64,000 nucleotides of DNA, taken from NCBI RefSeq assembly GCF_003790525.1, contig NZ_CP033635.1. One strand, written 5' to 3'. The translations under genes were made by a program, and so were the position numbers. Origin of the DNA: Escherichia coli (GTDB lineage Bacteria > Pseudomonadota > Gammaproteobacteria > Enterobacterales > Enterobacteriaceae). Numbering within the stretch: position 1 is the stretch's first letter; every line of letters starts with the position of its first letter. The notes under the pieces were generated by a model. That model saw only the letters and a list, made by a program, of their open reading frames with translations. It was not told the DNA's origin and did no database searches. This document shows positions 19,196-20,344 of the stretch, piece by piece.

Positions 19196-19305
19196 TATGT
19201 GGATATTATTAATAGCATGTCGAGAATATTTATATGAAGCCCATTACTTGGGTGATGCTGCCAACTTACTGATTTAGTGTATGATGGTGTTTTTGAGGTG
19301 CTCCA

Positions 19306-19581
19306 GTGGCTTCTGTTTCTATCAGCTGTCCCTCCTGTTCAGCTACTGACGGGGTGGTGCGTAACGGCAAAAGCACCGCCGGACATCAGCGCTATCTCTG
19401 CTCTCACTGCCGTAAAACATGGCAACTGCAGTTCACTTACACCGCTTCTCAACCCGGTACGCACCAGAAAATCATTGATATGGCCATGAATGGCGTTGGA
19501 TGCCGGGCAACCGCCCGCATTATGGGCGTTGGCCTCAACACGATTTTCCGCCATTTAAAAAACTCAGGCCGCAGTCGGTAA
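19306..19581 (+). CDS. insA: IS1 InsA
   Basis: 91-aa zinc-finger/HTH protein typical of IS1. Confidence 0.9.
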
Positions 19582-20003
19582 CCTCGCGCATACAGCCGGG
19601 CAGTGACGTCATCGTCTGCGCGGAAATGGACGAACAGTGGGGATACGTCGGGGCTAAATCGCGCCAGCGCTGGCTGTTTTACGCGTATGACAGGCTCCGG
19701 AAGACGGTTGTTGCGCACGTATTCGGTGAACGCACTCTGGCCACACTGGAGCGTCTTCTAAGCCTGCTGTCGGCCTTTGAGGTCGTGGTATGGATGACGG
19801 ATGGCTGGCCGCTGTATGAATCCCGCCTGAAGGGAAAGCTGCACGTAATCAGCAAGCGTTACACTCAGCGAATTGAGCGGCATAACCTGAATCTGAGACA
19901 ACATCTGGCAAGGCTGGGACGGAAGTCACTGTCGTTCTCAAAATCGGTGGAGCTGCATGACAAGGTCATCGGGCATTATCTGAACATAAAACACTATCAG
20001 TAA
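19500..20003 (+). CDS. insB: IS1 InsB reading frame (expressed as the InsAB' frameshift fusion)
   Basis: 167-aa ORF overlapping insA in the -1 frame. Confidence 0.85.
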
Positions 20004-20020
20004 GTTGGAGTCATTACCCA

Positions 20021-20344
20021 TTACTTGAGTCCATATGGGCATATTTTTATAATGCAACTATTATGCAAACATTTATTTGTTATTTTGCTTTCTCCTGGAG
20101 GACACTCTTGACTGCTTTTGAGTAAACTCCATAAATCCTTGTTGAATGATGCGATGTTATAAATAGTAATAGGATATTCTTTATCCTTAAGGATAATACC
20201 AGACTTAACCGGTGTAAATATCCTGCCAGGAGGGAGAAATATAGTAGATTGATACCAGATGATCATTTTCATATCACCCCATATGGCTGAAAAAGATATG
20301 CCGCATGTAGGTTGAATTACCGTGTCAATTACTATCCACTTCAT
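20021..20344 (-). CDS. iraM: Anti-adaptor protein IraM
   Basis: 107 aa ([23 protein letters not shown]...); the IS1 target duplication overlaps its stop codon. Confidence 0.8.

Follow-up and report, generated by a model that had tools for sequence, protein, structure and literature searches.

IS1 is defined as a 768-bp element that encodes the InsA repressor and, through a frameshift at an A6C motif, the 232-amino acid InsAB′ protein, and that leaves an 8–9-bp target duplication (PMC12428005). Its promoter, PIS1, overlaps the left terminal inverted repeat (IRL), is extremely weak and is repressed by InsA (PMC12428005). The IS1A copy of Escherichia coli K-12 conforms to this definition, and it shares with the element described here its length of 768 bp, its termini, imperfect inverted repeats of ∼23 bp, the insA/insB′ arrangement with an A6C −1 frameshift, a 232-amino acid InsAB′ and a 9-bp duplication. 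The gene next to which we find the element, iraM, encodes an anti-adaptor that stabilises RpoS (PMC4428439), and regulation of iraM by H-NS is reported in the title of a paper cited by that source.

We analysed a 64-kb stretch of E. coli DNA (the window), which contains a single copy of IS1. As the initial annotation had stated, this copy lies in the intergenic region between the convergent genes icd (plus strand) and iraM (minus strand). We consider it almost certain that the arrangement arose when IS1 transposed once, recently and in a simple event, into the icd-iraM spacer of an E. coli close to strain SMS-3-5, at a target that IS1 has used recurrently; the effect is most likely near-neutral. 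The features of the locus, in window coordinates, are these:

17891–19141, plus strand: icd (NADP-isocitrate dehydrogenase), the intact upstream neighbour; 416-amino acid ORF, NF005425 at 859 bits, PF00180, 100% identical to SMS-3-5
19165–19187, no strand assigned: GC-rich hairpin, the icd intrinsic terminator; a terminator scan gave a 9-pair stem followed by GTTTTATTT
19242–19250, no strand assigned: left copy of the target-site duplication, CATTACTTG, abutting the left end of IS1
19251–20018, plus strand: IS1 element, 768 bp, with insA to insB′ running left to right, towards iraM; assigned from its length and ends
19251–19273, plus strand: IRL, the left terminal inverted repeat; 19 of 23 positions match the reverse complement of IRR
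19306–19581, plus strand: insA, 91 amino acids, zinc ribbon and HTH, repressor; ORF with PF03811 and PF12759
19306–20003, plus strand: insAB′, transframe transposase gene, 232 amino acids after a −1 shift; a conceptual fusion
19557–19563, plus strand: A6C slippery motif of the programmed −1 frameshift; TTAAAAAAC found at 19555
19996–20018, minus strand: IRR, the right terminal inverted repeat; from the inverted-repeat comparison
20019–20027, no strand assigned: right copy of the target-site duplication, CATTACTTG, holding the iraM stop codon
20021–20344, minus strand: iraM (anti-adaptor protein, 107 amino acids), intact; NF007393 at 169.9 bits, annotated iraM in SMS-3-5 with identical sequence

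The footprint of the insertion is complete. Direct reading of the sequence and scripted indexing both place IS1 at 19251–20018, exactly 768 bp, with GGTGATGCTGCC as its first bases and GGAGTCATTACC as its last. The initial annotation had claimed an intact IS1 within a perfect 9-bp direct duplication, at 19242–19250 and 20020–20028, a claim that unequal 9-mers or truncated IS1 ends would have contradicted; we find that the 9-mers are identical and the termini canonical. The repeat is thus perfect and its left copy was correctly placed, but the right copy occupies 20019–20027, and 20020–20028 reads ATTACTTGA, which is not the repeat. The right copy had been set one base too far to the right, which explains the 1-nt disagreement with the ORF track that was flagged at the time. 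A perfect 9-bp duplication on both sides agrees with the 8–9 bp typical of the IS1 family. Counting both strands, the 64-kb window contains this 9-mer just twice, each time directly at an IS1 end; a random 9/9 match at a fixed position has a probability of 4^−9, or ∼4e-6. The identity of the two flanks in fact extends to 11 bases, with CC preceding each copy of CATTACTTG, but on the right these two bases are the canonical end of IS1 itself, and the duplication proper is 9 bp.

The relationship of the insertion to the end of iraM can be given to the nucleotide. The stop codon of iraM, which reads TTA on the plus strand, lies at 20021–20023, within the right-hand copy of the duplication as had been proposed; on the minus strand this copy reads C-AAG-TAA-TG, in which C closes a Leu codon, AAG is the terminal Lys codon, TAA the stop and TG the first two bases of the 3′ UTR. 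The description of an insertion at the iraM stop codon therefore holds for the repeat, which contains the stop, but needs to be qualified for IS1 itself, the tip of which is 2 nt downstream of the stop. iraM had been called intact, and indeed its DNA is identical to the SMS-3-5 allele. Its product matches NF007393 over residues 1–107 with 169.9 bits (cutoff 121), as expected of a full-length IraM; NCBIfam identified the protein, which had no Pfam match at E ≤0.001.

The element itself has the organisation of an IS1 family member throughout. Its ends are inverted repeats of ∼23 bp that start with GGT and match at 19/23 positions, and IRL overlaps the weak insA promoter region, where a promoter-like CTGCCA-16-TATGAT lies at 19258–19285. 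insA is complete, the A6C motif is near its end, and the −1 frame of insB′ stays open as far as 20003, which gives the full InsAB′. This protein has the transposase domains of the IS1 family, Zn_ribbon_InsA (PF03811, 73.9 bits), HTH_Tnp_IS1 (PF12759, 96.6 bits) and DDE_Tnp_IS1 (PF03400, 250.6 bits), and scores 246.5 bits against NCBIfam NF033558, transpos_IS1 (cutoff 100). The alignment to an IS1 reference that had been proposed as a check bears out the intactness of the element: it differs from K-12 IS1A by 28 substitutions and 0 indels (96.4% identity), and its InsAB′ differs from that of K-12 at 8 amino acids. All 28 of these differences fall after IS1 position 261 and the first third is identical, a distribution that suggests a mosaic or recombinant isoform.

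Copies of the same 768 nt, at 100% identity, are found in many chromosomes of E. coli as well as in plasmids from Escherichia, Klebsiella, Enterobacter, Citrobacter and Vibrio. These identical copies are labelled in RefSeq as ‘IS1 family transposase’, without the name IS1A, IS1B or IS1X2. Since they lie on so many chromosomes and plasmids across genera, the variant must have been mobile widely and recently. In K-12, variants that differ from IS1A by only 9 nt hardly transpose at all (PMC12428005), and the copy in the window is 28 nt and 8 amino acids from IS1A; the fresh footprint, together with identical copies at many loci and replicons across genera, argues that this variant is probably active. 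We also note that it is one of the commonest IS1 copies on resistance plasmids.

If the insertion is a simple transposition, then removing IS1 and one copy of the 9-mer should restore a sequence that exists in other strains. We rebuilt this empty site in silico, joining 300 nt of left flank, one 9-mer and the right flank into 600 nt, and searched 5,426 complete E. coli genomes (RefSeq), a set that does not include the source genome. SMS-3-5 and over 20 further complete genomes of E. coli contain the rebuilt sequence as a single piece, at 100% identity; in them the two sides are annotated as icd and iraM and CATTACTTG is single-copy. This single-piece match shows that IS1 entered by simple transposition and duplicated 9 bp of its target. 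The native spacer is 102 bp long, AT-rich and convergent.

The flanks indicate that the event was recent. SMS-3-5 is 100% identical to the window over 11076–19250 (8.2 kb), with IS1 as the sole break, and 99.989% identical to the right of IS1, with 5 mismatches over 20017–64000 (44 kb); the 24-kb stretch on the right of IS1 is also ∼100% identical to a dozen genomes from the same set that matched the empty site. Neither junction of this exact insertion is present in any of the 5,426 complete genomes, and the matches with full coverage have IS1 at other nearby positions. Similarly, among contigs with an identical IraM protein, the site is empty in all three loci with DNA, which stand for 26 contigs; one of the three has a different element at the 3′ end of icd. 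Because the flanks are nearly identical to the IS1-free SMS-3-5 and no complete genome shares the insertion, we infer that it is very recent and confined to this strain or its sub-lineage, in agreement with the earlier view of a recent insertion that has not been rearranged. A composite transposon or larger rearrangement was considered and rejected, as the window contains one IS1 only and its flanks are collinear with SMS-3-5.

The type of event is already well understood: it is an ordinary fresh IS1 insertion with an intact footprint. InsAB′ would have made a 9-bp staggered cut at CATTACTTG, the IS1 ends would have been joined to it, and gap repair would have duplicated the 9-mer. This staggered-cut and gap-repair mechanism is established for IS1. 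The coding sequences of icd and iraM and the icd terminator are untouched.

The icd hairpin, intact and 64 nt upstream of IRL, is the sole terminator-like structure in the spacer. Its RNA fold has an energy of −15.3 kcal/mol, equal on both strands; the T-run follows the stem on the plus strand, while the minus-strand tail, UUUCAAUAUUU, failed the T-run criterion of the scan. The hairpin is likely, from its fold, to have been a shared bidirectional terminator that also serves iraM in the empty allele, more weakly on the minus strand. IS1 has moved it 777 bp further from the iraM stop, from 56 nt in the empty allele to 833 nt. The initial statement that the iraM 3′ UTR and any terminator are displaced is thus upheld at the level of sequence, which is distinct from an effect on expression. 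No RNA family of Rfam is found in or near the insertion site; the sole Rfam match in the window is the C0299 sRNA at 38970–39048 (plus strand, 106.7 bits).

With IS1 in place, iraM mRNA would enter antisense IS1 sequence 2 nt after the stop codon. Insertions of IS1 exert Rho-dependent polarity in either orientation, and for this reason we expect iraM transcripts to end inside IS1; most likely Rho would stop them there, or else their 3′ tail would be longer. In this antisense direction the terminator scan gave only one weak 5-pair candidate, at 19391–19377. On the plus strand the scan found no terminator after insB′, and thus IS1 transcripts or any leak through the icd terminator would run antisense into iraM, although such transcription from IS1 would be weak and InsA-repressed. 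A hybrid promoter at the left junction was rejected, as 26 nt separate TTGGGT from the TATGAT of IS1, an unusable spacing. Separately, a near-consensus sigma-70-like site (TTGAGT-17-TATAAT, 10/12) lies at 20025–20053 on the plus strand, antisense in the 3′ end of iraM; this promoter-like site is native, being present in the empty allele as well, and its −35 overlaps the duplicated 9-mer. Taken as a whole, the net effect of the insertion on iraM is most likely near-neutral.

The same spacer has been hit by IS1 in other strains. A search for left junctions, with IS1 in either orientation, identified IS1 near the 3′ end of icd in 28 genomes in the plus orientation and 36 in the minus orientation, of which 15 were inspected in detail. 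Five of the 5,426 genomes (CUVET19-1426, W21, GPEC206-621, BKQ37E and LR881940) have a reverse-orientation junction at the same site in one continuous piece. In the two of these that were fetched, CUVET19-1426 and GPEC206-621, an IS1A-type copy lies at the identical 9-bp target, with duplication of CATTACTTG, in the opposite orientation. The insertion of these five genomes resembles that in the window in its insertion point, its CATTACTTG duplication between icd and iraM and its intact iraM, but it differs in orientation, in the IS1 copy (3–4 nt from IS1A and ∼30 nt from the window copy) and in the haplotype of the flanks. These three differences indicate that it is independent of the event in the window.

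A second site, 6 bp to the left, has likewise been used in both orientations: in the plus orientation in ES6 and CUWW06 (target duplications GAAGCCCAT and AAAACCCAT) and in QDFD216, and in the minus orientation in NCTC11023 and 2018-02-2CC. The insertions in ES6 and CUWW06 are similar to that in the window in orientation, spacer, 9-bp duplication and intact iraM, but lie 6 bp further left and involve an IS1 copy that differs at 22 nt. QDFD216, MIN9 and 50EVAW are deletion derivatives of the ES6/CUWW06 insertion; in QDFD216 the right side joins ymgC, and iraM through ariR are gone. Elsewhere in the region, IS1 lies inside iraM in FDAARGOS_944 and upstream of iraM in YJ4, EC590, PSS-04 and 2EC1. 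Reuse by IS1 of the same target, and of one only 6 bp away, identifies this AT-rich spacer as a recurrent IS1 target. The AT content is 67% in the spacer and 70% from the icd stop to upstream of iraM, compared to 52% in the window, and the pattern fits the known regional preference of IS1 for AT-rich DNA together with tolerance in a non-essential convergent spacer.

Two further observations concern these other strains. In E. coli E2386, IS1 lies in the icd terminator hairpin, at the equivalent of window 19176–19185, with a ∼10-bp duplication (AACACGCCCG) and the stem split. In several IS1-rich genomes (QDFD216, LR-71-1, PSS-04, 2EC1 and NCTC11023), in the region equivalent to window ∼19220–20700 onward, the right side of IS1 is joined to distant ymgC, ariR, pdeG or ycgH sequence without a target duplication; as read from these junctions, the joins are IS1-bounded deletions, in which iraM, ycgX, bluR, bluF, ycgZ and ymgA (and in some cases ariR) have been lost.

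The recurrence raises the question of whether the spacer is a true hot spot, one to which IS1 is directed by sequence or structure, either through bent, H-NS-bound, AT-rich DNA or through short homology to the IS1 tip, beyond mere tolerance of insertions; the insertion in the window would then be a further hit on it. We give this explanation an even chance; it complements simple transposition into a permissive spacer and does not exclude it. Independent use of an identical 9-bp target twice, and of the site 6 bp to the left in both orientations, is what directed insertion would produce. The target, C-ATTACTT-G, also has G/C ends around an AT-rich core within a spacer of high AT content, and its minus strand has GTAATG, which is bases 2–7 of the IRR tip, but 6 matching nt at an IS end carry little statistical weight. 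Classical studies of IS1 insertion into lacZ and pBR322 reportedly revealed both an AT-rich regional preference and hot spots. In addition, involvement of H-NS in IS1 transposition is cited in PMC12428005. Direction by IHF was considered and rejected, as no sequence that departs from WATCAANNNNTTR by 1 mismatch or fewer lies within ∼100 bp of the target, and this also counts against the hot spot. Moreover, the number of independent events is tentative, and the five genomes with IS1 at the same site may represent one event.

Selection might instead have favoured these insertions, if IS1 downstream of iraM changes the iraM 3′ end or antisense transcription, and thereby the level of IraM and the stability of RpoS. 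The role of IraM as an anti-adaptor that stabilises RpoS (PMC4428439) would make such an effect meaningful, and IS1 has inserted repeatedly and independently very close to the stop codon of iraM, only a few bases away, in both orientations. Many genomes have IS1 in or around iraM, and in some of them IS1-bounded deletions remove iraM through ariR/ymgC. The use of both orientations and of several positions, some of which destroy iraM, however, fits target preference and tolerance better than a single selected effect. Spacers between convergent genes are, moreover, generally permissive for IS elements. We therefore regard an adaptive origin as improbable. Similarly doubtful is the more elaborate proposal that the bases 3′ of the iraM stop form a nucleotide-precise IS1 hot spot, with at least two positions 6 bp apart each used in both orientations, and that hits there may be kept because, by altering how the 3′ end of iraM is formed or its antisense transcription, they tune the stabilisation of RpoS when Mg2+ is limiting. 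Least credible of all, to the point of being negligible, is an assembly artefact: the source genome is outside the 5,426 complete RefSeq genomes and IS1 is a high-copy repeat that an assembler could misplace, but a misplaced repeat would not yield a perfect 9-bp duplication of a single-copy target joined at canonical IS1 termini.

As a simple IS1 transposition, the insertion has little weight alone and is useful mainly as a strain-specific marker in an SMS-3-5-like lineage. It may nevertheless seed future IS1-mediated deletions of the iraM-bluR-ariR region, of the kind seen in other strains. What the locus adds, modestly, is that in natural isolates different IS1 variants have struck the icd-iraM spacer time and again, down to one 9-bp target. 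The spacer is thus a convenient natural test case, both for the choice of targets by IS1 and for any effect of iraM 3′-end disruption on RpoS control.

The surroundings of the insertion follow SMS-3-5 closely. iraM is in its conserved position, with the order iraM-ymgK-ymgL-ycgX-bluR found in both SMS-3-5 and K-12, and bluF and the genes beyond continue in the SMS-3-5 order. The e14 prophage is absent between icd and iraM, as it is in SMS-3-5 but not in K-12. In the SMS-3-5 annotation, the equivalent of window 33963–36611 includes a frameshifted ‘ECIAI39_1904 family autotransporter adhesin’ and a ymgJ pseudogene, which is their status in SMS-3-5 itself.

At the left end of the window (34–11075) is an element of ∼11 kb that is absent from SMS-3-5, located between roxA and the end of phoQ that encodes its C terminus. 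The window includes no more than the final ∼33 nt of the roxA flank, phoQ is at 11084–12544 on the minus strand, and a short repeat, GGACATA, is present at both junctions. The element encodes a tyrosine integrase (188–1438), a RepA-like AAA_25 helicase (4075–5481), an SSB (6294–6704) and a fusion of a ClpP protease and a major capsid protein (7608–9524), and its relatives in other E. coli have an annotated small terminase and head-tail connector. The element resembles a capsid-forming phage satellite (cfPICI-like) or else a very small prophage.
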